Shown here in pieces: positions 8,295-32,041 of a stretch of DNA of 64,000 nucleotides. Both the position numbers and the translations under genes were made by a program. The notes below the pieces were generated by a model. It searched no databases, was not told the origin of the DNA, and saw only the letters and a list, made by a program, of their open reading frames with translations. How positions within the stretch are numbered: position 1 is the first letter of the stretch; the number at the start of each line of letters is the position of its first letter. The stretch covers positions 72,441 through 136,440 of the forward strand of contig CADAZX010000001.1 in NCBI GenBank assembly GCA_902792515.1, written 5' to 3'. Origin of the DNA: an uncultured Ruminococcus sp. (GTDB taxonomy: Bacteria; Bacillota; Clostridia; UBA1212).

Positions 8295-9335
8295 TTAGAA
8301 TGCTTTTTTTCTGAGAATTACGAGGACGATGGCAGCCGCCGCAACGATGAAGAGAACCATCGTGGCGTCTCCTGTTACGGGGGTCGGGTCGGTTCCGGGT
8401 TCTGTGCCGGGATCTGTGCCGGGATCGTCACCGGGAACGGTGCCGTTCGGGTTGCCGTTGATCGAGAACTCAAGCGGGAGCTCGACAACGGTGCCGTTGG
8501 TGAGCTTCGCGATAAGTCTCGCTTCTTTTCCGCCCTCAAAAACGGTCGGGACCCAGATGCGGAAACGCGTAGCGTACTGTCCGCCCGCTTTGATAACGTC
8601 CTGTCCTGTCTCGAGCTTGAAATCGCCGTACGTCTCGACGCCGTCGAGTTTGTATCCGAGCTTGTCGATCTCGCCCTTGAAGCCTACCCAGCCGTAGAAG
8701 CCGATCTTGCTGAGGTTTTCAGCCGCAGCGTCGATGACGCCGTCCGGATAGTTTTCGTTGAACCAGTTTTGTGCCATCGAGGAAACGACCGGCGTGTCGT
8801 TGAAGTGGATCTCGTCGAACGAGTATCCCTTCATCTCCGCCAGCGGATCGGCTACTTCGCCGCCTGCTACGATGGTGATATCGGCCTCGTAGAACTCGGC
8901 CTCCGCTCCGTTGTTGTCAACGAAAATGAACGTAAAAACGTATTCGCCCGCATCAAGTCCGGTAAGCGGAACCTCAATGTTAACGCCCGGGGTCGCGTTG
9001 AGCGCTCTGTCATATGCCGAGAATTGGCCGAAAACGTCGTCTCTCGAGCCCTGCTCCACGGCGATGTCTTTGGCGTCGCCCGCGTCAATGTAGTACTTGA
9101 AGCTCTTGGGTCCGAACTCGGAAAGGAGCCATCCGCGAATGGATACCGACTCGGTGCCGAGACCGACTTCGAACGAAGTCACCGCGAGCCTCGAGGGGTT
9201 GCCGTCGGGAATGCTGACCTTTCCGCCCTGGTCGATATAGCAGTTGAACTGGCCGACGTCACCGTCAGCGTGTACCGCGATAGCTCCCATGCAGATGATC
9301 GCAACCGCGAGCATTATCGAAAGTATCTTTTTCAT
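8295..9335 (-). CDS. Secreted cell-surface protein with a C-terminal PVTGDAT-TM-RKKAF anchor (paralogue family)
   Basis: Signal peptide MKKILSIMLAVAIICMGAIAVHA. An internal GFYGWVGFKGEIDKLGYKLDG...YGDFK motif is shared with 63166..end. A PGTDPGTEPGTDPTP linker precedes a C-terminal tail nearly identical to that of 6567..8249. Confidence 0.7.
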   Translation of the reverse strand: MKKILSIMLAVAIICMGAIAVHADGDVGQFNCYIDQGGKVSIPDGNPSRLAVTSFEVGLGTESVSIRGWLLSEFGPKSFKYYIDAGDAKDIAVEQGSRDDVFGQFSAYDRALNATPGVNIEVPLTGLDAGEYVFTFIFVDNNGAEAEFYEADITIVAGGEVADPLAEMKGYSFDEIHFNDTPVVSSMAQNWFNENYPDGVIDAAAENLSKIGFYGWVGFKGEIDKLGYKLDGVETYGDFKLETGQDVIKAGGQYATRFRIWVPTVFEGGKEARLIAKLTNGTVVELPLEFSINGNPNGTVPGDDPGTDPGTEPGTDPTPVTGDATMVLFIVAAAAIVLVILRKKAF

Positions 9336-12250: not shown

Positions 12251-13390
12251 TTAAGGAAGCATCTTTCCGAATACTCTGTCGAGCACCGCGCCGATCTGGC
12301 CCGCATCCGGGTCGACCGGATTTGCCGTCGTGCAGATATCCTCAAGCGCCGCCTGAATGATTCTGCTTCTGTGCTCGGTGTAGTTCGGCAGGTTCACGCC
12401 GGCCTGGAGAAGCGACGACGGAATCTGAAGCTCGTTGATTAGCTTGTTGATCTCGCGGACAAGATACTGAACGGAGAGTCTCGTTCCCGCCGCGGGCAGC
12501 CCTATTATTCTCGCGATCTCCGCGTACCTTTTCGCCGTGGGCGACTTGTCAGCGCCGAACGGCACGTTTAGAGCCGAGTTGAACGCGATCACGTGGGGCA
12601 GCGTTATCGCGTTTGCCTCGCCGTGAGGAATGTGGAACGCCGCGCCGACTGCGTGTGAGATCGAGTGGCAGATGCCGAGCCCCGCCTTCGTGAACGCCAG
12701 TCCCGCCAGGTACGAAGCCATCATCATATTTTCGCGGGCTGCATCGTCGTCACCGTTTTTGAACGCCTCGGGCAGCCACTCGAACGCGAGCTTGAGCGCC
12801 TTTTCGGCATACGCATCTGTAATCGGGTTCGCGCCCTTCGCGACGTACGCCTCGAACGCGTGTGTAATGACGTCCATTCCCGTGAAAGCGGTGACCTTGG
12901 GCGGCACCGTCTTCGTGAGCTTGTAGTCGAGGATCGCGAGGTCCGGGATCATCCTGTCGTCTGCGAGCGGAATCTTCCTGCCCGCGTCCTCGTCCCTGAT
13001 TACCGTGTAGTTCGTAACCTCCGAGCCCGTTCCGCTTGTCGTCGGAATCGCCACGAATTCCGGGTGAACGTTCATGCCGTCCAGCACCAGAATGACCGCC
13101 TTGGCCGTGTCGATCGCGCTTCCGCCTCCGAGCGCCACAATTACCTCCGCTCCCTTGTCCGTAACGAACTTCAGGCAGTCGGTCACGAGCGTCAGCGTCG
13201 GATCCGGCATAACCTTGTCGTAAACGCTCACGTTGCACGTCCTTAGAAGGTTCACGATCCTGTCGCAGATCCCGTTTTCCTTCATGACCGCGTCGGTAAT
13301 AACGGTCACGTTTTTCTTGCAGTACCTGCCGAGCGCGTCAGTCGCGCCCGCTCCGAATATTAAGTTTGAGCTGATTTGAAATTCCGTCAT
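12251..13390 (-). CDS. Iron-containing (group III) alcohol dehydrogenase, likely lactaldehyde/propanol oxidoreductase (FucO/PduQ-like)
   Basis: GGGSAIDTAKAV, the metal-binding HxxxH region and the Fe-ADH fold. It sits next to the DeoR regulator at the edge of the microcompartment locus. Confidence 0.8.
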   Translation of the reverse strand: MTEFQISSNLIFGAGATDALGRYCKKNVTVITDAVMKENGICDRIVNLLRTCNVSVYDKVMPDPTLTLVTDCLKFVTDKGAEVIVALGGGSAIDTAKAVILVLDGMNVHPEFVAIPTTSGTGSEVTNYTVIRDEDAGRKIPLADDRMIPDLAILDYKLTKTVPPKVTAFTGMDVITHAFEAYVAKGANPITDAYAEKALKLAFEWLPEAFKNGDDDAARENMMMASYLAGLAFTKAGLGICHSISHAVGAAFHIPHGEANAITLPHVIAFNSALNVPFGADKSPTAKRYAEIARIIGLPAAGTRLSVQYLVREINKLINELQIPSSLLQAGVNLPNYTEHRSRIIQAALEDICTTANPVDPDAGQIGAVLDRVFGKMLP

Positions 13391-13453: not shown

Positions 13454-14227
13454 TCAGGCCTCCTGCAGCGGGTAGAGAAGCCCGATCTGCCTCTCCGCAA
13501 AAAACTCCGTCCACTCGATGCCCGGGTTCCTGTCCGTGACAACTATGTCCACGTCCTCGACCTTGCAGATTTCCACCAGCGACACCCGGTTGAACTTCGT
13601 ACTGTCGATCGCGAGAATTTTCGTCCTCGCCGCCCCGATTATCGCCTTTTTGATCTCCGCGTCCTCGTCGTTCGAGTCCGTCAGACCGTTGCGCATGTCG
13701 ATTCCCTTGCACGAAAATATCGCGTAGTCAACGTGGAACGACTTTATCGCCTCGACCGCCCGCGCCCCGACGAACGCGTAGCCGCCCTCCTTGAGCATGC
13801 CCCCTGTCGCGAAAACCCTCCAAAACGGCTTGTCGCACAGCTCGCAAACGATCTCGGACGAATTCGTGATGACCGTCAGGTTCTTCCTGACCTTGAGCGC
13901 CTTGATCACGAAAAGCGCCGTCGAGCTGCCGTCGAGCATCACGTTCGAGCTCTCGGGAATGATATCCCCGGTCACGTTCGCTATCGCCTGCTTGAGTTCC
14001 ACGTTCGACAGCTTTCTGACCGAATACGGCAGGTCGACGTCCGAGCTCTCCGCCAAAACCGCGCCGCCGTAGATTTTCCTCGCGACGCCCTCGTTTTCAA
14101 GCTTGAGAAGGTCTCTCCTGACGGTCTCCTCCGTAACGTCAAAATGCGTCGCAAGGTCGCTGACTATTACCTTTTTCTCTTTCTGAAGCAAGTCCTTAAT
14201 GTACTGCTTCCTCTCGATTGCCAGCAT
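13454..14227 (-). CDS. DeoR/GlpR-family transcriptional regulator
   Basis: N-terminal HTH (RKQYIKDLLQKEKKVIVSDLATHFDVTEETVRRDL) plus a C-terminal DeoR sugar-binding domain. Confidence 0.9.
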   Translation of the reverse strand: MLAIERKQYIKDLLQKEKKVIVSDLATHFDVTEETVRRDLLKLENEGVARKIYGGAVLAESSDVDLPYSVRKLSNVELKQAIANVTGDIIPESSNVMLDGSSTALFVIKALKVRKNLTVITNSSEIVCELCDKPFWRVFATGGMLKEGGYAFVGARAVEAIKSFHVDYAIFSCKGIDMRNGLTDSNDEDAEIKKAIIGAARTKILAIDSTKFNRVSLVEICKVEDVDIVVTDRNPGIEWTEFFAERQIGLLYPLQEA

Positions 14228-14619: not shown

Positions 14620-15180
14620 TTAGACTATGGTTTCCCAGAGCTTCTTGTCCGGGCGAGGAATGATCGCGCTGTCGAGGCACATGCCTTCCTCCGCGACCGT
14701 CGCTATCGCCTTTTCCACCGCCGCCGTAACCGCCGCCACGTCGCCGGTAAAGAGTACGTACGACTTTCCGGCCATACCGTTCGCGAGCCTCAGCTCAACG
14801 AGCCGGACCTCCGCGGTTTTCGCCGCCACATCAGCCGCGACGATTGCGCCGGCTACCGAAAAAGTCTCAACGATTCCGAGCGCCTCGACCTCTCCGAACT
14901 CCGCGGCACCGAACATTGCCGAGAAGATCGACTCGTGCGGGTTGCCGAGCACGAAGCTGTCCACGAGCATTTCCGGGAAATTCGTTTTCGCCGCTTCGAT
15001 CGCGGCCTTCACGCTTCCGAGCCTTCCCGAGACGAGAATCACGTACTTTCCGGGGCAAACCGGGTGCGCGTCAAGCACCTCGACCTCGGCCGCCTTGATA
15101 AGGATATCGGCCGCTTTGAGACCCGTTGAAATCGTTCTGTATTCGACTAAGCCAATTGCACTGCTCATACCGGTTTTCAC
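14620..15180 (-). CDS. pduT: Tandem-domain BMC-T shell protein, PduT-like
   Basis: Two Pfam00936-type BMC domains. EMLVDSFVLGNPH, GIVETFSVAG and IPRPD motifs, and a Cys in the first domain (HPVCPGKY), match PduT. Confidence 0.8.
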   Translation of the reverse strand: MKTGMSSAIGLVEYRTISTGLKAADILIKAAEVEVLDAHPVCPGKYVILVSGRLGSVKAAIEAAKTNFPEMLVDSFVLGNPHESIFSAMFGAAEFGEVEALGIVETFSVAGAIVAADVAAKTAEVRLVELRLANGMAGKSYVLFTGDVAAVTAAVEKAIATVAEEGMCLDSAIIPRPDKKLWETIV

Positions 15181-15224
15181 CTTTCGTGTATTGCAAACAA
15201 ATCAAACCTCCGCCTTGCCGCTGT

Positions 15225-16562
15225 TTACTGACGGCGCGCGGTAATAACTATCTCTTTATCAGTTACGCTCTCGACTGTTCCGTCGATCGGAGAGTGGAGC
15301 GCGACGCCGAGGCTGGTTGCGGGGGTTGCCGCGATCAGCTGGTTTTTCGTCACCTCATCGCCCGCTTTAACGGAAGGAACGCACGGTACGCCGATGTGCT
15401 GCGAGAGCTTCAGGCGCAGGCGCGTGTATTTCGTTCCTGTCTCGGTGAGGGGCGCGGGAATGTCGTACCTGGAAAGTCCGAGCCTCGCGGTAAGCCTCTC
15501 CTTAGAGAGCATTCTGTGCGGTCTCGTCGCGGAAACGGGCTTCAGCTCCGCCTGTCCGGCCATCGCCACGCCGTGCTTTCTGAGACCTGCCTTGTACTCG
15601 TTGATGAGCGTTTTCGGCGAGAGGCCCTGAGGGCAGGCGTACATCTCGCATACGCCGCAGCCGCAGCAGTAAAGCGTCCCGAGGAACGGTTTCACGTTGT
15701 CCGATCTGAGGCTGACGCCGGCGGTCATAAAGTCGGCCGGTGATATCGGCTCGCCGAGAAGGTGGCGCGGGCAGAGATCCGAACACATGTGGCAGTTGCA
15801 GCAGACGGCTTTCGCCCTTCTGAACTGGAGCTTGATGTTCGGTCTGTGGTGCGTTACCACGTAGGAGTTGTCCGGGAGCAGAATGATGCTGCTCGTCGTC
15901 TTCGTCACAACTCCGTCGGGTCCGGTGAGCGTGCCCATCATCGGTCCGCCGCAGAGGTAGACCGGATTTTCGATCGTCGCGCCGCCGGCTGCCTCAACGA
16001 GCTCCGCGAAAGTAACTCCGAGCGGAACCTTGAGCGTGACGGGGTTCCTGACCTCGCCGCAAACGGTCACGAACTTTTCGGTGACAGGCGTGTCCGCGTG
16101 GATCGCGTTATATATGTTGAGCATCGTCTCGACGTTGTAAACAACGCACCCCACCGCGATCGGAATGCTTCCGGGCGGCACGACTCTGCCTGTTGTCTCG
16201 TAAATCGTCACAACCTCGTCGCCTGCCGGGTAGATCTCGGGCAGAAGGCCGATCTTGATGTGGCGGAACGACGAAAGATTCGCCGTGATCGCCTCCACAG
16301 CGCGTCCGTACGACTGCTTGATTGCGATAATGACATTCGAAACTTCAAGCGCATCTGCGACGTCCTCGAGCGCGGTCATGATCTCGTAAGCGTACTTTTC
16401 CATGACCTGGCGGTGCAGCTTGAGAAGAGGCTCGCACTCGGCGCAGTTAAGAATAACCGTGTCGGCAGACTTGTTGAGTTTGGCGTGCGAAGGGAATCCC
16501 GCTCCGCCGCAGCCGACGATGCCGTTGTTCCGCAATATTTCGATAAGCCTTGACAGTTCCAT
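15225..16562 (-). CDS. pduS: RnfC/NuoF-like Fe-S flavoprotein, PduS-like (cobalamin reductase / electron-transfer protein of microcompartments)
   Basis: GCGGAGFP NADH-binding motif, two 4Fe-4S Cys clusters (CCNCHMCSDLCP; CCGCGVCEMYACP), ~445 aa. Confidence 0.75.
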   Translation of the reverse strand: MELSRLIEILRNNGIVGCGGAGFPSHAKLNKSADTVILNCAECEPLLKLHRQVMEKYAYEIMTALEDVADALEVSNVIIAIKQSYGRAVEAITANLSSFRHIKIGLLPEIYPAGDEVVTIYETTGRVVPPGSIPIAVGCVVYNVETMLNIYNAIHADTPVTEKFVTVCGEVRNPVTLKVPLGVTFAELVEAAGGATIENPVYLCGGPMMGTLTGPDGVVTKTTSSIILLPDNSYVVTHHRPNIKLQFRRAKAVCCNCHMCSDLCPRHLLGEPISPADFMTAGVSLRSDNVKPFLGTLYCCGCGVCEMYACPQGLSPKTLINEYKAGLRKHGVAMAGQAELKPVSATRPHRMLSKERLTARLGLSRYDIPAPLTETGTKYTRLRLKLSQHIGVPCVPSVKAGDEVTKNQLIAATPATSLGVALHSPIDGTVESVTDKEIVITARRQ

Positions 16563-16881
16563 AAATCAATGTCTCTTTCCACCGTGATGCAAAGGCCGTC
16601 CCGCCCTTCCGGTTTTTCACCTTCAAATAGGCGAAAATCGCACGCGCAGCCTCTGCGGTAAAAGTTATTCGTTCGCGCCGCCTCCGCCTTAAGTCTTACC
16701 GTATTTCCGGGAAATATCCCGCGAAGGCAAAACCGCATCGCTCCACTAAGTGGCAGAGCTTTCCGCGGCGCGTTGTTATCCTGTTCAGCCCGTGCGGAAA
16801 GCCTTCCGCAACAGGATCAAAGGTTCCGTTTGCGGCCGCCCCGCTTGTTTTTAAAAGGCGGGGCGGCCTTCAGCGGACCTT

Positions 16882-17145
16882 TTACTCGAGTCCTATGCTG
16901 TCGTCGACGATACCCACAATCGCGGCGTCGATGGGACAGTTGACAAGACCGCAGCCGATTCTGGCCGCGCTTCCTTCGGCGACAAGCACGATTTCGCCTA
17001 TGCCGGCGCCGACGTTGTCGATGGCAACAATTCGCTTTTTGTCGGCCATGCTCTCCATGGGCTCGATGATCATGAACTTATTGCCTATAAGATTTTCGTT
17101 TTTTCTCGTGGCAACGACGCTGCCAACCACTCTTCCTACCAGCAT
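16882..17145 (-). CDS. pduN: BMC vertex (pentamer) protein, EutN/PduN/CcmL family
   Basis: 87 aa. MLVGRVVGSVVAT...KFMIIEP is typical of Pfam03319. Confidence 0.9.
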   Translation of the reverse strand: MLVGRVVGSVVATRKNENLIGNKFMIIEPMESMADKKRIVAIDNVGAGIGEIVLVAEGSAARIGCGLVNCPIDAAIVGIVDDSIGLE

Positions 17146-17197
17146 AAAACCACCCGCTTTATCTGCTTTGCTTGATTAATCTTATTAACCCTTTTCT

Positions 17198-17833
17198 TTA
17201 CTTGACGATCATACCGATGTCGCCGGTCTTGATCTGCGAAGCGTTCGCCTCGTCGGTGTCGATGTGCATCTCGAGCGAGAACGAAGGGTCGACGCGAATC
17301 GCGACGTTGTTGAAAATCGTTCCTCTGTCGTTGTTGAACTTCACAGAAACGACGTCTCCGTCCTTGACTCCCGCCATTTCAGCGTCGTGAGGCGTCATAT
17401 GAATGTGACGCGCCGCGACGATGCAGCCCTCGTCGAGTTGCACCATTCCGCAAGGTCCGACAAGGTTGATCGGAGCGCTTCCGGCAATGTGACCCGAAAG
17501 TCTGACCGGCGCCGGAACGCCGAGCGTGCGGGCATCCGTAAGCGATACTTCAACCTGGGTCTTGCTTCTGCAAGGTCCGAGGATCCTCACGTTCGCTATC
17601 GGGCGAAGTTTGAGGCCGACGATCATAACCTGCTCGTTGCAGGCGTACTGTCCGCCCATGAGGTCCTTCTTCTTGGTCAGATGGTAGCCCTTGCCGAAGA
17701 GTTTCTCAACGTCTTCCTGCGTCAGATGGATGTGTCTCGCGGACACGCCCACGGGCACCTGAAACCCGGTTTCGGACTGCTTTTGGATCACCTCAAGCAC
17801 AGCTCTTGTGATTTCTTCTATCGACTGATTCAT
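17198..17833 (-). CDS. pduL: Phosphate propanoyltransferase PduL
   Basis: Duplicated PduL/EutD-type domains (ARHIHLT...; AARHIHMTPHDA), ~211 aa. Confidence 0.9.
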   Translation of the reverse strand: MNQSIEEITRAVLEVIQKQSETGFQVPVGVSARHIHLTQEDVEKLFGKGYHLTKKKDLMGGQYACNEQVMIVGLKLRPIANVRILGPCRSKTQVEVSLTDARTLGVPAPVRLSGHIAGSAPINLVGPCGMVQLDEGCIVAARHIHMTPHDAEMAGVKDGDVVSVKFNNDRGTIFNNVAIRVDPSFSLEMHIDTDEANASQIKTGDIGMIVK

Positions 17834-18074
17834 TTTCTTCCGCCTTTATTTCTTCCGTTCTTTCCGCCCGGGCGCCTTTCCTTCCTTTAAGAAGGCGGTA
17901 CGCTTTTTTGCAAGCGCTCCGGCGCCCGCGGCATAAAAACTCAACGTTTCCCGGGCAATACTTCAAAGCGCGATACGTCGATTTGATACGTCAATTCGAT
18001 AAGTCAACGCAATGCGTCAACGCGATACCGCAATGATATCCCGCACCGTCCGGGAATTATAAATACGGGGATAA

Positions 18075-18353
18075 TTACTTCAGTACGGGAAGAATTCTCT
18101 CGACGTCGTTGTGAGGTCTGGGGATCACGTGGGTGGCTACGAGTTCGCCGAGCTTGGCAGCGTTTGCGCCGCCGGCTTCAACAGCGGATTTAACGGCGCC
18201 GACGTCGCCTCTTACCATAACGGTAACGAGTCCGGAACCGATCTTCTCGGTGCCGACAAGTTCAACGTTAGCAGCTTTGAGCATTGCATCGGCCGCTTCG
18301 ATCGCAGCTGTAAGTCCTCTTGTTTCAACCATTCCTAAAGCCTGTTGTACCAT
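18075..18353 (-). CDS. BMC-H shell protein (PduA/PduJ-like). The start was probably miscalled in the ORF track, which gives an upstream Lys-rich extension to 18494.
   Basis: [30 protein letters not shown]...IPRPH. A strong RBS AAGGAGG lies immediately upstream of the internal ATG at 18351-18353. Confidence 0.85.
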
Positions 18354-18498
18354 TTTCTTTTCCTCCTTAATTGTTTCAACATTTCCGCTTCCCGCGGATT
18401 CAGTTTTGATTTCTTTTACATTCGGAGCCGCCGGCTTCTTTACGTCAGCCTTCGGCTTTCCGGTGTTTGCCGGTGTTTTCTTAGTTTCTGCCATAATG

Positions 18499-18819
18499 TC
18501 ACACCTTCTTGAGTCTGCTGGCGCTTATAGCAACCATTCTGGCGGTCTCCTCGTGGGGGTTCGCGATCACGGCGTGCGCGCAGGGTTTGACAAGGCTTCG
18601 CGCCAGCGCGGCTTCCACAGCTTCGGTAACGGCCGAGACCGTTCCCTCTATTACGATTGTGACAAGCCAGCCGCCGAGTCTGCGTTCCCACGTGACGAAC
18701 CTGACGTCTGCGGTTTTGCACATTATGTCAAGCGCGTCGATCGCGGCCGTAACGCCTCTGACCTCGATAAATCCCAATGACTCCATTTTCTGCCGTTCCT
18801 CCCTGAGAAACTTTTTCAA
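18499..18819 (-). CDS. BMC-domain shell protein (106 aa)
   Basis: [30 protein letters not shown]...[20 protein letters not shown] is a single BMC domain. Confidence 0.8.
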
Positions 18820-18950
18820 GTTTTCGAGCTTCCGCCCTTTTCAAAATCCGACCGTAACGTAACGCGACGGTTCCGTCCTCTGACGTCTCGTGAGGCGCCG
18901 TTTTAACGTTCTTTACGTCAAGAACACTAAATCAGCGTTTTCCGATTATT

Positions 18951-19229
18951 TTATTTCGCCTGGGGAAGGATCTTCTCCACGTCGTTGTGCGGTCTCGGAA
19001 TAACATGAACCGCTATGAGCTCGCCGAGTTTGCCTGCGTTTGCGGCGCCGACTTCGGTAGCCGCCTTAACAGCCGCGACGTCGCCTCTTACCATAACGGT
19101 AACGAGTCCGGAGCCGATCTTCTCGGTGCCGATGAGGGTGACCTCTGCCGCTTTAACCATTGCGTCGGCCGCTTCGATAGCCGCTGTAAGACCTCTGGTC
19201 TCAACCATGCCCAATGCTTCCTGTACCAT
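18951..19229 (-). CDS. BMC-H shell protein (PduA/PduJ-like), paralogue of 18075..18353
   Basis: [30 protein letters not shown]...IPRPH. RBS GGAGG lies before the ATG at 19227-19229. The track ORF extends upstream, probably spuriously. Confidence 0.85.
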
Positions 19230-19377
19230 AACATTTACCTCCATTAGAATTTCAAGTTGTTTCACTCTGCCGGGTCTTGCGCTCCGTCTGCGTTCCGCGT
19301 CGCTTTTCGCACCGGAAACGTCATTTTCGCGCATGCCCGAAAATAATTACATTGCCGTTCCGCCGCCCGCCTCAAGG

Positions 19378-19692
19378 TCAGCTCTTGTCGAGTCCACTCA
19401 GCTTCAGCATCTTTTCGGTTCCGGGTTCCGGGTTCGCTATTATATAAGACGTAACCACTCCCGAGACCTTTTCGGCCGCCTCTACTGCCGCCTCGACCGC
19501 AGCCTGAACCGCGGCGACGTCCCCCCGGAATTTCACCAAAACGATAAGAGGCACCTTCAGCTTTTCCGGGTGAGCCGGTTTGTTTCTGTCGAAAACCTCC
19601 ATATGTACGTTGGCCGCCTTGCATCCGGCGTCTCCCGCAACGAACGCCGCGACCAGTCCGTATACTTCCACAAATCCAACTGCTTCTGCCAT
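19378..19692 (-). CDS. BMC-domain shell protein (104 aa)
   Basis: AVGFVEVYGLVAAFVAGDAGCKAANV...FRGDVAAVQAAVEAA, then IIANPEP. Confidence 0.75.
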   Translation of the reverse strand: MAEAVGFVEVYGLVAAFVAGDAGCKAANVHMEVFDRNKPAHPEKLKVPLIVLVKFRGDVAAVQAAVEAAVEAAEKVSGVVTSYIIANPEPGTEKMLKLSGLDKS

Positions 19693-19927: not shown

Positions 19928-21148
19928 TCACTTGTTGACGATCGCGATCTTGAGACCTTCCTGTCTCAGGTTCACGCCCATCGCCTCGTTGATCTGGTCA
20001 AGCGGGAACTTGTGGGTGATGAGCTCTTTGATCGGGAGCCCGATGCCCTGCGCCCTCTTGAGGAAGTCGAACGTCGTCGCGTAGTCCCTGAGAGTGTAGA
20101 CCCAGGAGCCGACGATCGTGATCTCCTTCGAGCAGATGTCGAAGTGCGGGTTGATTGTCGCGTCGCCGCCGTTGATGAAGAAGCCCAGCTCGCAAAGACC
20201 GCCGCCGTTGCGGATGAACTTGTAGATGTTGGAATGTCCGCCGGGAGCGCCGGTGCACTGGAATCCGAAGTCCGCAAGATGTCCGCCGAACGCGTCCTTG
20301 ACCGCCTCTGTGAGAGCCTCGATGCCCTTGATCTCTCTGTAGTTGACAGAACCCATGGCGCCCATTCTCTTCGCGAATTCAAGTCTCTTCGGGTTTCCGT
20401 CGACCGCCACGATGTTCTGGACGCCGAGCGTTCTCAGAACCGCGATGCAGATGAGTCCGATCGGTCCGCATCCCTGTACAACAACTCTGGAGTTGAATCT
20501 GAGGATGTTCGTGCTCTTCGCTCTCTCGACAGCGTGAACGAGTACCGCGCAGGGCTCGATGAGGATTCTGGAGTCGAGGTCAAGGTCGCTCACGTTGAAG
20601 AACGTGGAGCCGAGCTTGCCGCGAATCAGAATGTAGTCCGAGAACCATCCGTTGAGGTGCACGTCGTCGTCCGGAAGAAGTCCGTAGACGTCCGCACCGC
20701 CGACGTTCTGCTTGTTGAGGTCGAACATCGTGATTTCGGGGTTGTCTTTAAATATCATGCAGGTGACGATCTTGTCTCCGAGGCCCACCGGCTTGCCGGC
20801 GCTGTCGACCTTGACGTTTTTGCCGATCTTCACGATCTCGCCGGTTCCCTCGTGTCCGAGAGCGACCGGGATAAGACTGAACGGGTCTTTTCTGAATTCG
20901 TGAGCGTCGGTTCCGCAAATGCCGCAGCCTTCGACCTTGACGAGAATGTCGTCGTCGCCGACCTCAGGGATCGGATATTCCCTGATTTCGAATTTTTCAA
21001 GAGCGGTAAGGAACGCTACGTGGGCCGTCTTCGGGATCGAGCCGCTCTGTCCTCCCGCGGTATAACCGGAGGCGGGGCGTACCGGAGAGCTGTTCATGGC
21101 CTCAAGCACTTTCCTGACAATCTCTTGAATGTCACGTTGGTTGTCCAT
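19928..21148 (-). CDS. Zinc-dependent (MDR-family) alcohol dehydrogenase with an N-terminal encapsulation-peptide-like amphipathic helix
   Basis: GHEGTGEIV and GCGPIGL Rossmann motifs, plus a structural-zinc Cys region. N-terminus MDNQRDIQEIVRKVLEAMNS, then a ~25-aa G/S/P-rich linker. Confidence 0.75.
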   Translation of the reverse strand: MDNQRDIQEIVRKVLEAMNSSPVRPASGYTAGGQSGSIPKTAHVAFLTALEKFEIREYPIPEVGDDDILVKVEGCGICGTDAHEFRKDPFSLIPVALGHEGTGEIVKIGKNVKVDSAGKPVGLGDKIVTCMIFKDNPEITMFDLNKQNVGGADVYGLLPDDDVHLNGWFSDYILIRGKLGSTFFNVSDLDLDSRILIEPCAVLVHAVERAKSTNILRFNSRVVVQGCGPIGLICIAVLRTLGVQNIVAVDGNPKRLEFAKRMGAMGSVNYREIKGIEALTEAVKDAFGGHLADFGFQCTGAPGGHSNIYKFIRNGGGLCELGFFINGGDATINPHFDICSKEITIVGSWVYTLRDYATTFDFLKRAQGIGLPIKELITHKFPLDQINEAMGVNLRQEGLKIAIVNK

Positions 21149-21162
21149 TTGTTTTTCCTCCC

Positions 21163-22548
21163 TTATCTGATGCAGAGACTGTCTGACATGATGCAGTGTC
21201 TGCGCTTTGTGAATGTCTGAGCGGAAGTGAGTCCCTCACCTGTGCGGCTCGCGATCGTAAACGTGCAGTAGCCTTCGCCGCCGAATCCGAGCGCCGCGTA
21301 GGAAGGCGCGTTCTTGACCAGGATCGCGGTGTCTATCGCCTTGCCGTACTTGGTGATGTTGTCGATGTTCTTCGAGTGGATGTGGGCCGAATGGCGGTTG
21401 CCGTGCTCGAGCCACACCGCTTTCTCGATCGCGTCGTCAATGTCCTTCGCCCTTACGATACCGAGGATCGGCATCATGAGCTCGGTGGCGATGAGCGGGT
21501 GTTCCTTCTCGCCCTCGAAAATGATGCAGCGCACGTTCGACGGAACGTCGACGCCTATCATCTTCATAAGGGTCTTCGCGTCTCTTCCGACGCACTTGCG
21601 GTTGAGCGCGCCCTTCGGCGTGATAACGGTCTCGACGAGCTTCTGAATCTCTTCGGGAGTTGCCTCGTAGCAGCCGTTTTCAAGCAGATGGTACTTGAGC
21701 TCGTCCGCGATCGACTCGACGGCGACAATTTCCTTCTCCGCGATGCACGGGAGGTTGTTGTCGAACGTGCAGCCGTTCACGATGTCTCTCGCCGCCTTCG
21801 GGATGTCGGCCGTGTCGTCAACGAGTGCCGGCGGGTTGCCCGCGCCTGCGCCGATGCCCCTGCGTCCCGACGAGAGAACCGTGGTTACAACGCCCGGTCC
21901 GCCTGTCGCGGCGATGAGCTGGATGGCCTTGTGGGACATCATGATCTTGGACGTATCCAAAGTGGGTTTGACAACGGAAGTCGCGACGTTGTTCGGGCCG
22001 CCCGCCTCGATCGAAGCTCTGTTCACGAGCTCGATCGCGAACTGGGAGGTTTTGATTGCCGCCGGGTGCGGGTTGAAAACGACTGTGTTGCCGCCCGCGA
22101 TCATTCCGATGCTGTTGCAGAGGATCGTCTCGCTGGGGTTGGTCGTGGGCGTGATGGCGCCGATAACGCCGAACGGGCCCATTTCGACAAGGGTAAGTCC
22201 CCTGTCGCCCGACCAAACGCGCGTGGTGATGTCCTCGGTTCCGGGCGTCTTTTCGGCGAGAAGCTTGTGCTTCAAAATCTTGTCGCCTACGTTGCCCATT
22301 CCCGTCTCCTCAACGCCCATTCTCGCGAGGAGTTCCGCATTTTCAATAGTAAGTCTTCTGATGTTGGAGATAATTTTCTCCCTGAAATCCATAGGCATTT
22401 TCTGCATGACCTTTTGGGCCTCGATTGCAGCCGCTATGGCATCGTTCATGTCCTCAAAAATACCGAGTCTTTTTTCTGCCGGCGTATCGTGGAGCTGCAT
22501 GCTTGCCACAACCTGCGCTACGATTGCCTGAATATCGTTCTCGTTCAT
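21163..22548 (-). CDS. pduP: CoA-acylating aldehyde dehydrogenase (PduP/EutE family) with an N-terminal encapsulation peptide
   Basis: ALDH fold with catalytic Cys context (NNLPCIAEKE). N-terminus MNENDIQAIVAQVVASMQ resembles known encapsulation peptides. It overlaps the next gene by 4 nt, which suggests operon coupling. Confidence 0.85.
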   Translation of the reverse strand: MNENDIQAIVAQVVASMQLHDTPAEKRLGIFEDMNDAIAAAIEAQKVMQKMPMDFREKIISNIRRLTIENAELLARMGVEETGMGNVGDKILKHKLLAEKTPGTEDITTRVWSGDRGLTLVEMGPFGVIGAITPTTNPSETILCNSIGMIAGGNTVVFNPHPAAIKTSQFAIELVNRASIEAGGPNNVATSVVKPTLDTSKIMMSHKAIQLIAATGGPGVVTTVLSSGRRGIGAGAGNPPALVDDTADIPKAARDIVNGCTFDNNLPCIAEKEIVAVESIADELKYHLLENGCYEATPEEIQKLVETVITPKGALNRKCVGRDAKTLMKMIGVDVPSNVRCIIFEGEKEHPLIATELMMPILGIVRAKDIDDAIEKAVWLEHGNRHSAHIHSKNIDNITKYGKAIDTAILVKNAPSYAALGFGGEGYCTFTIASRTGEGLTSAQTFTKRRHCIMSDSLCIR

Positions 22549-23084
22549 TTTTTCGCGATCGCCTCCTTAAATAATTTTAGTCCGTATTCTGCCAAAAAAG
22601 TGTCCTGTTCCTCCGTGCCGCCGCTGACGCCTATGCCGCCGATCACCGTTCCGCCGCACTCAAACGGTTCCCCGCCTCCGAAAATCACTATTCTCTGATT
22701 GTTCGTAAACTGGATCCCGTAGAGCGGCTTCCCGGGCTGGGCGAGCTTTTTGAGCGTCGAGGTGGACATCTTGAGCGCCGCCACCGTGAAAGCCTTGTCA
22801 AAAGCGATGCCGTAGCTCGCTATGTAAGAGCCGTCCATACAGTGGACCGCCACCGGATTCGCGCCCCTGTTCGAGATCGCCACGACCGCGTTGACTCCGA
22901 TTTCGGCCGCCTTCTTCTCCACGCCTTCGATGATCTCGAGCGCGAGCGCGAGCGTCATATCGGAGTAGGAGTTTCCCGGCGTTTCCGGAGCAGGTTTTAC
23001 CGTCTGCGGCCGGCCGCCCTCAAGGGATGCGACTACGTCACGCACTATCTGTTCGATTGCCGCGTCCGAAAGTTTCCGGTCCAT
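22545..23084 (-). CDS. GlcG / DUF336 (PduO C-terminal domain-like, haem-binding) protein with an encapsulation-peptide-like N-terminus
   Basis: AAIEQIVRDVVASLEGG N-terminal helix. The C-terminal region ...VIGGIGVSGGTEEQD is typical of DUF336. Confidence 0.65.
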   Translation of the reverse strand: MDRKLSDAAIEQIVRDVVASLEGGRPQTVKPAPETPGNSYSDMTLALALEIIEGVEKKAAEIGVNAVVAISNRGANPVAVHCMDGSYIASYGIAFDKAFTVAALKMSTSTLKKLAQPGKPLYGIQFTNNQRIVIFGGGEPFECGGTVIGGIGVSGGTEEQDTFLAEYGLKLFKEAIAKK

Positions 23085-23209: not shown

Positions 23210-24022
23210 TTATTTGCCGAGCTGCGCCATAACCTTCTTTGTGATTTCGGCGATCAGAGCGTCGTCGGAGCTGCTCGAAGAGGAGGTGTGATGACCCGAG
23301 CATGAACCGCCGCAGTTGTGGCAGCTGGGCTTGCCTTCAAGCGTGTTCGGGCAGAGGTTCGCGGGATGGCGTCCGGGCATACCGAACTTTCTCCTGATCT
23401 CGTAGAGGTCCTCAACCTGCTGGGGAGTGAACTCCTTCGGGCCGCCGAGCATTTTCGACTGGTAGAGGAGCCGGGCGTAGAACTCGGTGGATTCCATCTT
23501 GTAGTACGCGTTGAGGAGCGTGTTCGAATACGTGAGAGCGCCGTGGTTCTCAAGCAGAACGGCGTCGAAATACTGAACGTACTCGGAAACCGCGTCCGGA
23601 ATCTCCTCGGTGGAAGGACGTCCGTACTTCGCGATCGGAACGCAGCCGAGAGCGATGACCGCCTCAGGCATAATGGGCTGAGTCAGCGGAATTCCCGCGA
23701 TCGCGAACGAGGTCGCGTACAGCGGGTGTGCGTGTACGACCGCGTTGACGTCCGGTCTCTCTTTATAGACGCGCATGTGCATTTTGATTTCGGAGGACGG
23801 TTTGAATCCGGCGTTCGCCTGGATGACCTTTCCTTCTCTGTCAACTTTGCAGATGAAGTCGGGCGTCATAAAGCCCTTACTCACACCTGTAGGTGTGCAA
23901 AGGAACTCGTTGTCGTTCAGCTTTACGGAGATGTTGCCGTCGTTGGCGGCGACCATTCCCCTGTCGTAAATACGACGGCCGATGTCGCAGATTTCCTTTT
24001 TGATCTCATACTCTGATTTCAT
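23210..24022 (-). CDS. Class II aldolase (L-fuculose-/rhamnulose-1-phosphate aldolase family) with a Cys/His-rich C-terminal linker and a terminal encapsulation-peptide-like helix
   Basis: The aldolase_II core carries metal-ligand His residues (HAHPLYAT). The C-terminal ~70 aa is an extra: ...CPNTLEGKPSCHNCGGSCSGHHTSSSSSSDDALIAEITKKVMAQLGK. Confidence 0.75.
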   Translation of the reverse strand: MKSEYEIKKEICDIGRRIYDRGMVAANDGNISVKLNDNEFLCTPTGVSKGFMTPDFICKVDREGKVIQANAGFKPSSEIKMHMRVYKERPDVNAVVHAHPLYATSFAIAGIPLTQPIMPEAVIALGCVPIAKYGRPSTEEIPDAVSEYVQYFDAVLLENHGALTYSNTLLNAYYKMESTEFYARLLYQSKMLGGPKEFTPQQVEDLYEIRRKFGMPGRHPANLCPNTLEGKPSCHNCGGSCSGHHTSSSSSSDDALIAEITKKVMAQLGK

Positions 24023-24576: not shown

Positions 24577-24960
24577 TCACGTCTTGGTGATTGCGACCAC
24601 GGTGAACTTGAGCGTTTCCCTCAAGTAGTCCACGACCGCGTGCACCGCCGCCTCGACCTCTGAAACCGTGCCTGTCATTATGAGCGTTCCGCTGAACCTG
24701 TCCACGAATCCGATCTCCGCGCCGGAGGCCTTCATCGCTATGTCGCCCGCGATTATCGACGTCTCCGCCGGCGTCATCGTCATGATTCCGATCGAACTGT
24801 TTGAGTAGTCGACCGACGGGTTGAGTCCCATCTTCCTGTACAGGATCGGCTCAGGGTTCGCGATAATGTGCGCCAGCGTCACCTGCTTGCCGGGAACGAG
24901 CTCCTGCACGATCCTCATTTTCGTGTCGTCGGACTGTTTGATTAATCCCTGAAGATCCAT
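24577..24960 (-). CDS. pduU: Circularly permuted BMC shell protein, PduU/EutS-type
   Basis: GFVDRFSGTLIMTGTVSEVEAAV and an N-terminal beta-barrel-forming segment, ~127 aa. Confidence 0.8.
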   Translation of the reverse strand: MDLQGLIKQSDDTKMRIVQELVPGKQVTLAHIIANPEPILYRKMGLNPSVDYSNSSIGIMTMTPAETSIIAGDIAMKASGAEIGFVDRFSGTLIMTGTVSEVEAAVHAVVDYLRETLKFTVVAITKT

Positions 24961-26042: not shown

Positions 26043-28571
26043 TTAGAAATTGTTAGCCTGAGTCGTCCTCGAAATAATGTCGTCCTGGAGGGATCTGGAA
26101 AGCGTCGTGAACAGCGCGCTGTATCCCGCGACCCTTACCACGAGCGCTTTGTACTTCTCGGGGTGCTGCTGAGCGTCGAGCAGCGTCTCGCGGCTGACCA
26201 CGTTGAACTGCACGTGCATGCCCTTTCTGTTGAAGTACGTTCTCAGGTAGGTGATGAAGTCGTTGATGCCCTTCGGGCCCGAGAGCGCCGACGGGTGGAA
26301 CTTCTGGTTGTAGAGAGTTCCGTTGGAGGCGATCAGGTGGTCGATCTTCGCGACCGAGTTTGCCGCCGCCGTGGGTCCGAGCTTGTCCCTGCCCTGTGCG
26401 GGGCCGATGCCGTCCGCGATAGGAGCCTGCGAAAGTCTGCCGTCGGGAGTCGCGCACGACTGGGCGCCGAGCGGAACGTTCGCGGAGACCGGATAGAGGC
26501 CCGCCTGGAAGATGCCGCCGCGAGGATTCCTGAACGTCTCAAGCGGCTTTGTGTATGTGTACGCGACGTCTCTCGCGAAAAGGTCGATCTCGTCGATGTC
26601 GTTGCCGTACTTGGGAAGCGCCTCGATGTCGTCGAGCATCTTTTCGTAGAAATCGACACGCTCTTTGGGGAGCTGCTTGGATGCCGCCGCGCTCGCGTAT
26701 ACCGCCTTGATGACTTCGGGGGTGATCTCCCTGCCGTCCTTGGCGAGCTTAGCGCAGACCGTCTTCACGATGTGCTCCATATCGAGCGGCGTGAGCCCTT
26801 TTCCGAAGTTGTCCGCCATAGCCTGCTTGAAATCGGCCATCGTGTACTTTTTCTCCTCGAAAACGAGCTTTTTGATCGCGAACAGGCCGTCCGCGACGTT
26901 GGCGATACCGAAGCCTTGAGGGCCGGTGAAGTTGTAGATCGCTCCGCCCTCTTCCACGCACTTGCCGGATTCGAAGCACCCGTCTGTGAGGCAGGACTCG
27001 AACGGAAGCGGGCTTCTCTGAGCGTGGGCGTAATCTATCGCGTTGATTGCGTTTACCATCAGCGCGATGGAGGTTGTCATCTGCTTCTTGTAGGCGTTGT
27101 AGAGCTCGTCGAACGTAGTCATCTTGAGCACGTCGCCCGTCTCGACAGTTACAAGCTCGCCGTCCTCCCAGCCGTTCGTGAACGTGAGCTCGAGAGGTCT
27201 GAGCATGTTGAAGAACGCCGCGTCGTGCCAGCCGTCGGTCTTGCCCGGAACCTGGGGCTCCACGCAGCCGATAATGTTGTACTCGCGCGCCTCTTCAAGC
27301 GGAATTCCGCGGTTCATGAGGGCGGGAATGATGACCTCGTCGTTGTAGTAAGCCGGGAGGCCGATACCGGTTCTGGTGAGCTCGACCGCCTTCACAAGGA
27401 TCTCGTGGGGCGTTCCGTTCCAGATCCTGATGGAAAGAGAAGGCATCGGCAGTCCGGTGTGCATGGAAGCTTCGATGCACATCGCGGAAAGGTCGTTCGT
27501 GACGTCCTTGCCGTCCCTGTCCTGGCCGCTTACGATCAGGTTCTGGAAGAGGCTGTAGCCGGCGAATCCCTCCGCGGAAGCGGCGTCGCGGCACTTGTTG
27601 AGGTCGTTCAGCTTGATCCAGATGCAGTCGAGAAGCTCCTGCGCGGACTCTCTCGTGATCGTACCTGCGTCGAGGTCCTTTTTATAATAAGGATACATAT
27701 ACTGGTCGAATCTTCCGGGCGAGATCGAGTGGCCGCTCGACTCAAGCTGGAGGAGCTGCTGCACGAACCAGAAAGCCTGGCACGCCTCGTGGAACGACTT
27801 GGCCGGATTCTCGGGAACGTTGCGGCACACCTGCGCGATCTTAAGCAGGTCGGTGCGCCTCTCGCCGCTCGCGGACTGAGCCATTTTCTCAGCCAGATCA
27901 GCGTATCTGTTGGCATATCTGATGACCGCCTTGCAGCTTCTGATGACCGCCTCATAGAAGATCCTGCGCTTGCACGCGTCTGCCTTGCCTACGCACATCT
28001 CCGCCATTTCCTTTTCGGCTCTCGCGATGACGCCCTTGAGGCCCTCGCCGAGAACGGTCCAGTATGTGACCGTGATGTGGCCGATGCCGTTGTAGAAATA
28101 GTTGCCCGGCGTGAAAATGTTGTGGTTAATCGCCCTGAGAGCTCTCGGGTCCATAAACGCCGTCGCGAGCTCGCTTGTAGTCTTGTTCTTCCAGTACTTG
28201 TCCGCCTCCGCGATCCTGCGCTTGGCGTCTTCGCTGATATTGAACGGGTCCGCCTTTCTGTCGGCGACGGTGTCGAACTCCGCCTCGAGCCACTCGTACG
28301 AGAACTCCGGATAAGTCTGGCAGCCTCTCATTTTAATCGTGGTGCTGCCGACGATGAGTTCGTCGTCGCGGATGACGATCGGAATGTTGTCCAGAATGTG
28401 CTCGAACGCCCTCGATTTCCTCTCCACCTCGGGAAGGTTCTCGGTAGCTTTGTACGACTCTGTAATAAGTTCAGCCCTCGCCGGCTCAATCTCCGGTTTA
28501 GCATTATAAAAGGCGTCAAGGAGTCTGTCGATTCTGGCGGTCTTTTTGATTGGGCTCGTATCGAAATTCAT
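26043..28571 (-). CDS. Glycyl radical enzyme, probable B12-independent 1,2-propanediol dehydratase (PFL2/glycerol-dehydratase class)
   Basis: 842 aa. Glycine-radical motif RVAGYSALF near the C-terminus. Eliminase-type active-site loop GCVEP. N-terminal region (ELITESYKATE...AFEHIL...IRDDELIVGSTT) and the internal WFVQQLLQLESSGHSISPGRFDQYMYPYY block match remembered diol-dehydratase sequences. Confidence 0.7.
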   Translation of the reverse strand: MNFDTSPIKKTARIDRLLDAFYNAKPEIEPARAELITESYKATENLPEVERKSRAFEHILDNIPIVIRDDELIVGSTTIKMRGCQTYPEFSYEWLEAEFDTVADRKADPFNISEDAKRRIAEADKYWKNKTTSELATAFMDPRALRAINHNIFTPGNYFYNGIGHITVTYWTVLGEGLKGVIARAEKEMAEMCVGKADACKRRIFYEAVIRSCKAVIRYANRYADLAEKMAQSASGERRTDLLKIAQVCRNVPENPAKSFHEACQAFWFVQQLLQLESSGHSISPGRFDQYMYPYYKKDLDAGTITRESAQELLDCIWIKLNDLNKCRDAASAEGFAGYSLFQNLIVSGQDRDGKDVTNDLSAMCIEASMHTGLPMPSLSIRIWNGTPHEILVKAVELTRTGIGLPAYYNDEVIIPALMNRGIPLEEAREYNIIGCVEPQVPGKTDGWHDAAFFNMLRPLELTFTNGWEDGELVTVETGDVLKMTTFDELYNAYKKQMTTSIALMVNAINAIDYAHAQRSPLPFESCLTDGCFESGKCVEEGGAIYNFTGPQGFGIANVADGLFAIKKLVFEEKKYTMADFKQAMADNFGKGLTPLDMEHIVKTVCAKLAKDGREITPEVIKAVYASAAASKQLPKERVDFYEKMLDDIEALPKYGNDIDEIDLFARDVAYTYTKPLETFRNPRGGIFQAGLYPVSANVPLGAQSCATPDGRLSQAPIADGIGPAQGRDKLGPTAAANSVAKIDHLIASNGTLYNQKFHPSALSGPKGINDFITYLRTYFNRKGMHVQFNVVSRETLLDAQQHPEKYKALVVRVAGYSALFTTLSRSLQDDIISRTTQANNF

Positions 28572-30875: not shown

Positions 30876-31949
30876 TCAGTCTTTAAAACACAACCACATC
30901 GCGGGTCGGACACCGGTATCGAGTTGTTGCAGTAAGCCGCCGTATGCCGGCATAACGCCCGCCGGGTCAACGACTGCCATGCCCGAGGTCTTCTGCGGGG
31001 GGGCGAAAGGATTCGTCTGTTCCATGGCGTGCGCCGGATTGCGGGTCCACCAGTAGCTCGCGAGTTCACCGTCCGTGGTCTTATCATATTCCGCTACGTA
31101 CAGTCCCTTTGACTTAGCGTAAGGAGTCCCCGCGCACCTCCTTGCCTCGTATGAATTGAAATATGTTTCGACTTCGAGCATGCTCAGGAGAAATAACCGG
31201 TCGTATGTACTGTTTCCCGGGTCGAGATTGGGATCATCGGGATTTTCGGTATTCTTGTCCGCCGGAACATGCGAAAGTTGTATCGACGACCGCTCTTCCG
31301 GAGTGAACGCACCGTTGAGGAACGTACTGCTTAGCCACTCGCGCAGGTCGCACGTCTCCCATTTCTGCTTATCCTTGTCCGAGCCGGTGTTGACAGGCTG
31401 ACAATCGAGTATGTATTTGCTTACAAGAAGCGCCTTGTTGTCAGCTTTCTTCAAAACCAGCCATTCGATTTTTTCTTTCCCGTTGCCGGCGTTGTTGTCC
31501 TGCTCGTACGATCCGAATTTGATAATGTCGCCGGCCTTTAAATTTTTGTACACTGATAGTGACAGAGGATTAGGCGTCGGCGTAGGAGTAGGCGTGGGAG
31601 TCGGTGTCGGCGTGGGCGTCGGTGTCGGCGTAGGAGTAGGGGTAGGCGTGGGCGTCGGCGTCGGTGTCGGTGTAGGCGTGGGCGTCGGCGTACACTCTGT
31701 GGGGGCAATATCAAGCCAAGATCCTGTAGACGCAGGCGTCGGTTTCGAAGTAATCTCCGGCGTTATCTCCGGCGTGACTCCCTCCGTAACCTCCGGCAGC
31801 TTTGTGGCACCTGGCGTATTCAAAGCCGCAACCTCTTCGGTGTTCTGCGGCGGCGTGAAAGGCAGACAGCCCGCGAGCATTATAACGGCCAGAAGAAGAA
31901 CAGCCGGCAGTATTGCACGTTTCCGCCTCATATTCGTGGTGTTAAACAT
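30876..31949 (-). CDS. Lipoprotein with a (TP)n linker and a C-terminal DUF6273-like domain
   Basis: Start reassigned to MFNTTNMRRKRAILPAVLLLAVIMLAGC (RBS AAAGGAGG, lipobox LAGC). A (TP)30-type linker and a C-terminal GDIIKFGSYEQDN...IEWLVL...YWWTRNP...VRPAMWL domain follow. The upstream part of track ORF 30876..32123 is non-coding repeat DNA. Confidence 0.65.
   Translation of the reverse strand: MFNTTNMRRKRAILPAVLLLAVIMLAGCLPFTPPQNTEEVAALNTPGATKLPEVTEGVTPEITPEITSKPTPASTGSWLDIAPTECTPTPTPTPTPTPTPTPTPTPTPTPTPTPTPTPTPTPTPTPNPLSLSVYKNLKAGDIIKFGSYEQDNNAGNGKEKIEWLVLKKADNKALLVSKYILDCQPVNTGSDKDKQKWETCDLREWLSSTFLNGAFTPEERSSIQLSHVPADKNTENPDDPNLDPGNSTYDRLFLLSMLEVETYFNSYEARRCAGTPYAKSKGLYVAEYDKTTDGELASYWWTRNPAHAMEQTNPFAPPQKTSGMAVVDPAGVMPAYGGLLQQLDTGVRPAMWLCFKD
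31561..31700. repeat. Coding hexanucleotide microsatellite (GGCGTN)n encoding the (TP)n linker
   Basis: About 23 tandem units ggcgtc/ggcgta/ggagta/ggtgtc, read directly. Confidence 0.85.
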
Positions 31950-31975
31950 GTGATCGCCTCCTTTAAAATCATCAG

Positions 31976-32035
31976 TTTGGGAAGTATCAGTCTGAGAAGT
32001 ATCAGTTTGAGAAGTATCAGTCCGAAAAGTATTCG
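31976..32035. repeat. 15-bp tandem direct repeat (gaagtatcagtytga), about 3.5 copies, upstream of the lipoprotein gene
   Basis: ttgggaagtatcagtctgagaagtatcagtttgagaagtatcagtccgaaaagtattcg. Confidence 0.8.
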
Positions 32036-32041
32036 CGAACC

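Follow-up and report, generated by a model that had tools for sequence, protein, structure and literature searches.

Alcohol dehydrogenases of propanediol utilization (Pdu) and glycyl radical enzyme microcompartment (GRM) loci are usually group III iron enzymes of the PduQ kind, and the question raised here is which enzyme takes that place in a bacterial microcompartment (BMC) locus where two dehydrogenases of different fold are encoded. The locus lies in a 64,000-nucleotide stretch of an uncultured Ruminococcus sp. (GenBank assembly GCA_902792515.1, contig CADAZX010000001.1, positions 72,441 to 136,440; hereafter the window). A first-pass annotation of this DNA had proposed that the lumen alcohol dehydrogenase is a zinc-dependent medium-chain dehydrogenase/reductase (MDR; here Zn-ADH) with an N-terminal encapsulation peptide (EP), that the iron alcohol dehydrogenase (Fe-ADH) stands outside the shell genes and has no such peptide, and that a cofactor-recycling module has been swapped. 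We conclude that open reading frame (ORF) 19928-21148 is very probably a GRM5-type microcompartment alcohol dehydrogenase belonging to the orthologue family of Clostridium phytofermentans Cphy_1179, with predicted lumen targeting and NADH-linked aldehyde reduction. Neither is new: earlier work on GRM5 has described and catalogued both this enzyme and the peptide that would target it.

Window positions 20980-21148 are the codons for residues 1 to 56 of this minus-strand ORF, and the protein N terminus reads MDNQRDIQEIVRKVLEAMNSSPVRPASGYTAGGQSGSIPKTAHVAFL. As read from the sequence, the start codon is an ATG at 21148-21146. A mis-called start was ruled out by the strong Shine-Dalgarno sequence, the gap of 14 nt to the stop codon of the acylating aldehyde dehydrogenase (AldDH) gene just upstream, and the conservation of the N termini in 80 orthologues. 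Pfam assigns residues 64 to 174 to ADH_N (PF08240) and residues 229 to 364 to ADH_zinc_N (PF00107), with no Pfam match over residues 1 to 40; the protein matches neither PF00465 nor PF25137 and is thus not a group III iron enzyme (PduQ/EutG/FucO). The best PDB match is 1vj0, a zinc alcohol dehydrogenase of Thermotoga maritima (E = 2e-34), and alignments to PDB relatives begin only at residues 34 to 57. The catalytic zinc ligands are C78 (in CGTD), H99-E100 (in GHEG), and E198. Alignment to 1vj0 and TDH matches C78 with the canonical motif CG[ST]D and H99-E100 with GHEG, and 80 of 81 orthologues keep these motifs. A GxGxxG Rossmann motif occupies residues 226 to 231 (G226-x-G228-x-x-G231), and D250 is typical of NAD preference. 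With GroES-like and Rossmann domains, zinc ligands, and GxGxxG motif all present, the protein is an enzyme of MDR fold, predicted to be zinc dependent, its catalytic-zinc ligands intact and its Rossmann motif of NAD type. Its homologues number more than 7000; the top 120 share 79% identity or more with it and have lengths of about 400 amino acids.

Ahead of this catalytic region stand a helix and a flexible linker. In an AlphaFold2 model built on a 61-sequence alignment, residues 4 to 20 are helical, the predicted local distance difference test score (pLDDT) falls below 50 over residues 20 to 35, regular structure is missing as far as residue 40, and residue 41 is where the MDR fold begins. 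The 11-mer RDIQEIVRKVL (residues 5 to 15) has a helical hydrophobic moment of 0.93, which is at the 99.7th percentile within the protein; when the first 30 residues were shuffled 2000 times, this value was reached twice. The first-pass annotation would have been undermined by a segment that was disordered or non-amphipathic; instead, the segment is predicted to be helical and strongly amphipathic. A core, N-I-E-x-I-V-[KR]-Q-V-L-x-x-M, is kept in 79 orthologues, with hydrophobic positions that are nearly invariant and follow the spacing i, i+3, i+4, i+7, i+8, i+11. The linkers of these orthologues are 10 to 25 residues long (median 15), consist of 70% A/S/G/P, and comprise 76 distinct sequences among 79. 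The Zn-ADH terminus therefore has the amphipathic helix of 15 to 20 residues by which EPs are defined (Kinney; Aussignargues 2015).

The hydrophobic moment alone fails to tell EPs from other termini: the values for the AldDH (0.42) and the aldolase C terminus (0.47) are no better than those for the DeoR or PduS N termini. Profile searches and conservation were relied on instead. Supplementary Data 5 of Sutter 2021 contains an EP profile hidden Markov model (HMM) for this enzyme (HMM00107alcdh_1_grm5.GRM5; 197 sequences, consensus dmNnIEeIVKQVLesMlgg plus an Ala-rich linker), along with a GRM5like EP profile and a profile for the DUF336 protein (HMM03928Haemd_2_grm.GRM5). We rebuilt the first of these from the supplement text and ran hmmsearch against the 354 six-frame ORFs of the window. 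The Zn-ADH was the top match (residues 6 to 28, 16.3 bits, E = 2.2e-4), and the only other proteins above the inclusion threshold were the AldDH (residues 4 to 18) and the DUF336 protein, both with E = 2.3e-3. The published profile thus picked out exactly the three proteins on which EP-like N termini had been noticed in the first pass, including the PduP-like AldDH, whose N terminus is a standard PduP/EutE-type EP. An EP HMM built in this analysis gave nonsignificant scores for the DUF336 protein and PduL (E about 1) and told us less than the published profile.

Residues 1 to 19 of EutC reportedly direct green fluorescent protein to Eut shells. The EutC N terminus of Escherichia coli and Salmonella, which is among the N-terminal EPs listed by Aussignargues 2015, resembles that of the Zn-ADH in both motif and architecture (MDQKQIEEIVRSVMASM plus an AAPAPS linker in the K-12 record, compared with MDNQRDIQEIVRKVLEAM plus SSPVRPAS), although the Zn-ADH helix belongs to another enzyme and another kind of compartment and its targeting is predicted. 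We infer that the helix is an EP that would place the enzyme in the lumen. The 2015 survey reported no EP on BMC alcohol dehydrogenases, and PduQ and EutG have no canonical one (Aussignargues 2015), in contrast to the clear one of the Zn-ADH. This case confirms that a sequence-only reading is able to recognize EPs.

The distribution of the extension among relatives points the same way. Orthologues were scanned in one genome per GTDB species, yielding at least 584 relatives; locus counts come from the best 80, which are 77 to 92% identical to the Zn-ADH (88 to 92% in the nearest species genomes). Helix plus linker is kept in all 80, a shell gene adjoins the Zn-ADH gene in 79 of the 80 loci, and an aldolase gene is found in 73 within the available flank. 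The higher conservation of the Zn-ADH (77 to 81%, versus 60 to 65% for the glycyl radical enzyme [GRE]) was discarded as evidence because the 80 loci had been picked by Zn-ADH similarity. When 1.84 billion representatives were searched exhaustively with a profile, the full-length family formed one cluster at 50% identity, and ordinary MDRs aligned only from Zn-ADH residue 40 to 55 onward. The next clade, from bacteria of the Planctomycetes-Verrucomicrobia-Chlamydiae (PVC) group (Akkermansia glycaniphila, Lentisphaeria, Victivallales), is about 60% identical and has the same catalytic ligands, but its members are 366 to 376 amino acids long, lack helix and linker, and start with MQQTARAAVLT, i.e., at the catalytic domain. 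They also keep a four-Cys lobe that the Zn-ADH has lost, and no BMC genes lie within 10 kb of them in any of the six genomic places examined. The nearest Zn-ADHs outside microcompartment loci therefore do not share the N terminus, as they would have done if the first-pass reading of it had been wrong.

Some members that are 64 to 67% identical to the EP-less query do carry the helix; they come from Caloramator sp. E03 and from a contig resembling Caldanaerobius. The loci of Caloramator sp. E03 (L086, 1876-16795) and L090 (2857-15419) share a backbone of aldolase, AldDH, EP-tagged Zn-ADH, four BMC genes, PduL, EutN, PduS, and PduT, in which B12-dependent PduCDE/PduGH stands in for the GRE. The aldolase and Zn-ADH module can thus be paired with either dehydratase type. 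Taken together, the EP-bearing B12-type loci and the EP-less non-BMC clade indicate that the extension tracks shell-gene loci and that the enzyme goes with the aldolase whichever type of dehydratase is present. Among the members examined, the helix is present in 82 of 82 from shell loci and missing from the six non-BMC sister-clade places, i.e., from the homologues without a BMC, with the caveat of two paralogues considered below. In two of the six places the EP-less enzyme directly follows an aldolase gene (L085, 8615-11104; L087, 6569-8566), which belongs either to class II (Aldolase_II, under an AraC regulator) or to the F_bP_aldolase family. This PVC pair fits a cytosolic aldolase plus aldehyde reductase, as predicted from gene order.

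The locus itself is, by gene content, a GRM5 microcompartment of the fucose/rhamnose GRE type. Between 28571 and 12251 every gene is encoded on the minus strand, in the order GRE, activase, PduU-like BMC protein, PduV/EutP, class II aldolase, DUF336 protein, AldDH, Zn-ADH, four BMC-H proteins, PduL, EutN, PduS-like, PduT-like, DeoR, and Fe-ADH, with six PF00936 genes and one EutN gene in total; shell genes lie at 14620-19692 and at 24577-24960. The same set of genes has been published for GRM5 (Axen 2014, PMC4207490; Ferlez 2019, PMC6325248). The GRM5 type was assigned because a locus with a GRE and a radical-SAM activase beside shell genes also has a class II aldolase, here with a C-terminal EP as described by Aussignargues 2015. 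Other GRM5 features found are the Zn-type dehydrogenase in place of an Fe-ADH, PduS and PduT homologues, DeoR, DUF336, and an activase without the ferredoxin-like insertion of about 70 amino acids (only Radical_SAM and Fer4_12 matches). For C. phytofermentans and R. inulinivorans, Petit 2013 had described the dehydrogenase encoded in the BMC locus as a zinc-dependent MDR unrelated to PduQ, and Axen 2014 (PMC4207490) noted the zinc-for-iron difference in GRM5 and regarded core components as plastic; the departure from the usual Fe-ADH seen in the first pass is real. GRM5 was later defined by the aldolase plus an encapsulated "lactaldehyde reductase (pfam00107 and pfam08240)" (Ferlez 2019, PMC6325248), and GRM5 loci number 57 in that study and 216 in Sutter 2021. 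Compared by domains, context, and EP profile, the window copy, from uncultured rumen/gut Clostridia, shows no substantive difference from the known GRM5 enzymes (C. phytofermentans Cphy_1179, R. inulinivorans ABC25529). They have the PF08240 and PF00107 pair in common and the same position between the AldDH and BMC-H genes, and the loci are alike in GRE, short activase, PduU-like protein, PduV, class II aldolase, DUF336, PduL, EutN, PduS, PduT, and DeoR.

In the mechanism that we propose, the helix would bind the lumen face of the shell or coaggregate with EP-bearing cargo (AldDH, PduL, DUF336 protein, aldolase) and so bring the Zn-ADH into the lumen, where the enzyme would spend NADH from the acylating AldDH on reducing an aldehyde. 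The likeliest substrate would be L-lactaldehyde from the encapsulated class II aldolase, reduced to 1,2-propanediol for the glycyl radical dehydratase, and propionaldehyde may also be turned into 1-propanol. Reducing lactaldehyde turns NADH into NAD+, oxidizing propionaldehyde turns NAD+ into NADH, and the two stand at 1:1; therefore, the cofactor could be recycled within the shell with no need for a PduQ of the Fe type. The Zn-ADH and PduQ/EutG (of Pdu, Eut, and GRM1-4) share the proposed role of reoxidizing lumen NADH for the acylating AldDH, but they are unrelated in fold and metal site (MDR versus PF00465), and in contrast to PduQ the Zn-ADH probably also acts upstream of the dehydratase, on lactaldehyde. 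The idea of a swapped cofactor-recycling module is supported, with a qualification. It is the view published by Axen 2014 (PMC4207490), which was refined by Ferlez 2019 (PMC6325248) to a lactaldehyde reductase, i.e., an added upstream step that also reoxidizes NADH and not a one-for-one substitute for PduQ.

The lactaldehyde assignment is the part of this reading with the strongest competitor, namely, that the Zn-ADH purely replaces PduQ, regenerating lumen NAD+ by converting propionaldehyde to 1-propanol, and that lactaldehyde is reduced by another enzyme, such as the Fe-ADH or, according to Petit 2013, PduS. Cphy_1179 was annotated as a propanol dehydrogenase, with propanol and propionate as products (Petit 2013), and Axen 2014 (PMC4207490) took the enzyme as the core alcohol dehydrogenase with a different Pfam. 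Also on this side is the score of the window Fe-ADH against the lactaldehyde reductase model TIGR02638 (270 bits), well under the cutoff of 523 bits. Since C. phytofermentans does make propanol, which weighs against our assignment, lactaldehyde as the main substrate is a deduction from gene context and the literature. That the Zn-ADH co-occurs with a class II aldolase in loci of the GRE type and of the B12 type argues for lactaldehyde, as do the use of Fe-ADH in aldolase-free Pdu/GRM loci (Axen 2014, PMC4207490) and the aldolase genes that adjoin EP-less sister enzymes outside any BMC. Only 17 of the 80 related loci have a homologue of the Fe-ADH within 10 kb, which counts against this competitor. 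We favor the lactaldehyde-reductase reading because the enzyme tracks the aldolase, and a pure PduQ replacement seems unlikely, even though the lactaldehyde and propionaldehyde roles are not mutually exclusive. The closest EP-less relatives, putatively cytosolic and sometimes aldolase linked, would support the same assignment and a closed 1:1 NAD+/NADH loop in the organelle. What the comparison adds to the published picture is that, in GRE-type and B12-type compartments alike, the Zn-ADH with an EP goes together with the class II aldolase.

Lumen targeting has its own counterevidence. The helix is modeled with a low pLDDT of about 55, and our literature search found no experiment on encapsulation or substrate of any member of the Zn-ADH family. 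In addition, two distant MDR paralogues, P0393 (L088, 10001-11152) and P0143 (L089, 10001-11152), which are about 39% identical and have the catalytic Cys/His replaced, carry a near-identical EP-like N terminus (MDLKIDDIVKQVLSEV) and a linker without shell genes within 10 kb, and an EP-like helix is thus not strictly confined to shell-gene loci. All three points weigh against a targeting function and could be accommodated if the helix were an element of oligomerization, solubility, or regulation on a cytosolic enzyme. We consider this very unlikely given that a helix plus variable linker is the defining EP pattern, that the motif matches a listed EP (EutC), that its presence follows the shell loci as counted above, and that peptides of the same kind occur on four neighboring cargo enzymes. 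The paralogues could be trans-encoded cargo, or the helix could have been retained after they left a BMC locus. They lie in sugar-acid loci with an enolase-superfamily dehydratase, a GntP permease, an IclR regulator, a DHDPS-type aldolase, and DUF386, with an EP-less PduL nearby.

The Fe-ADH has no N-terminal extension, because its residue 4 aligns to residue 24 of E. coli EutG (36% identical); its Pfam match begins at residue 9, and the claim that it stands outside the shell block, next to DeoR, and without a peptide proved correct. Since PduQ is thought to enter the compartment by binding PduP (Aussignargues 2015), a missing EP is no proof that the Fe-ADH is cytosolic. That it is the real lumen NAD+-recycling enzyme, piggybacking on the AldDH in the way supposed for PduQ-type enzymes without an obvious EP and reducing the Zn-ADH to an accessory, is nevertheless highly improbable: the gene is on the same strand as DeoR and 63 bp downstream of it, but lies beyond that regulator, homologues more than 60% identical occur near only the three closest of the related loci, and the GRM5 descriptions include no Fe-ADH component (Ferlez 2019, PMC6325248; Axen 2014, PMC4207490).

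One feature of the Zn-ADH departs from the zinc-dependent MDR pattern, in that the four-Cys lobe of a second, structural zinc site was not found. A conserved Cys-poor loop, CMIFKDNPxITMFDLNKQNVGGADVY, takes the place of the lobe in all 81 GRE-linked orthologues, with one Cys in 80 of them and two in the remaining one. The Cys cluster is kept by the B12-linked EP-bearing and the EP-less PVC clades, with five lobe Cys in P0339, P0370, P0271, and P0279. AlphaFold2 confidence is low here (pLDDT below 50 at residues 133 to 135, 140 to 142, and 148 to 153; block means of 49 to 50 for residues 131 to 150). Some true MDRs, sorbitol dehydrogenases among them, likewise lack the structural zinc site. Loss of the lobe is still compatible with MDR membership, and one zinc per subunit is predicted. 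A doubtful, speculative extension would be that the lobe swap is an adaptation of the GRE-linked clade to the lumen (e.g., a new cargo-cargo or shell contact) and that the helix has in addition spread to the paralogues without zinc ligands as trans-encoded cargo or scaffold, through which another pathway that yields lactaldehyde would be tied to this organelle.

Table 1. Coordinates of the Zn-ADH, its parts, and other genes of the GRM5 locus in the window
Feature	Position	Strand	Basis or detail
Zn-type MDR alcohol dehydrogenase/putative lactaldehyde reductase, GRM5 locus	19928..21148	-	406 aa; Pfam
Shine-Dalgarno GGGAGG of Zn-ADH	21157..21162	-	8 nt upstream of ATG; read from sequence
Predicted encapsulation-peptide helix QRDIQEIVRKVLEAMNS, residues 4-20	21089..21139	-	AlphaFold2, hydrophobic moment, conservation, EP HMM
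Flexible linker SPVRPASGYTAGGQSGSIPK, residues 21-40	21029..21088	-	pLDDT <50; orthologue composition
MDR catalytic and NAD-binding domains, residues 41-406	19931..21028	-	Alignment to 1vj0 and TDH
Degenerate structural-zinc lobe CMIFKDNPEITMFDLNKQNVGGADVY, residues 130-155	20684..20761	-	1 Cys vs 5 in sister clades
Glycyl radical enzyme	26043-28571	-	PFL-like + Gly_radical (PF02901 + PF01228)
Activase, 263 aa	24962-25753	-	Radical_SAM + Fer4_12
Class II (fuculose/rhamnulose-phosphate-type) aldolase, 270 aa, C-terminal EP DDALIAEITKKVMAQLGK	23210..24022	-	Pfam Aldolase_II (PF00596), residues 10-186
DUF336/HbpS-like (PduO C-terminal-like) protein, 42-aa N-terminal helix + linker	22545..23084	-	Pfam domain 43-169; EP HMM
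Acylating aldehyde dehydrogenase (PduP/EutE-like), N-terminal EP MNENDIQAIVAQVVASM	21163..22548	-	Pfam Aldedh; EP HMM
Shell/core block: four BMC-H, PduL, EutN, PduS-like, PduT-like	14620..19692	-	Pfam BMC, PTAC, EutN_CcmL, Complex1_51K
PduS-like	15225-16562	-	Pfam
PduT-like, tandem-BMC	14620-15180	-	Pfam
DeoR regulator	13454-14227	-	Pfam
Fe-ADH without extension, outside shell block	12251-13390	-	Pfam PF00465/PF25137; EutG alignment

Among the neighboring cargo genes (Table 1), the AldDH is covered at full length by NCBIfam PRK15398, the C-terminal EP-like motif of the aldolase is present in 72 of 73 orthologues, and a helix-like N terminus is seen in most orthologous DUF336 loci, as judged by inspection and without a count. 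PduL (17198-17833, minus strand) also has an EP-like N-terminal helix, MNQSIEEITRAVLEVIQKQ (EP MNQSIEEITRAVLEVIQ), which was not listed in the first pass; the motif occurs in 48 of 60 orthologues. Between its catalytic domain and C-terminal EP, the aldolase contains a conserved Cys/His motif, HPANLCPN-x7-SCHNCGGSC (residues 219 to 241; 23300-23368, minus strand), and 70 of 73 orthologous aldolases have at least four Cys in their last 75 residues. This motif may form a small site that binds metal or Fe-S within a linker usually called poorly conserved.

Consensus scans for promoters and terminators around DeoR and the Fe-ADH gave nothing above shuffle expectation. Outside the locus, ORF 30876-32123 (minus strand) contains a long (Thr-Pro)n repeat, and two adjacent genes (6567-8249 and 8295-9335, both minus strand) encode predicted secreted or surface proteins with almost identical C-terminal membrane anchors, ATMVLFIVAAAAIVLV[VI]L[KR]KKAF.

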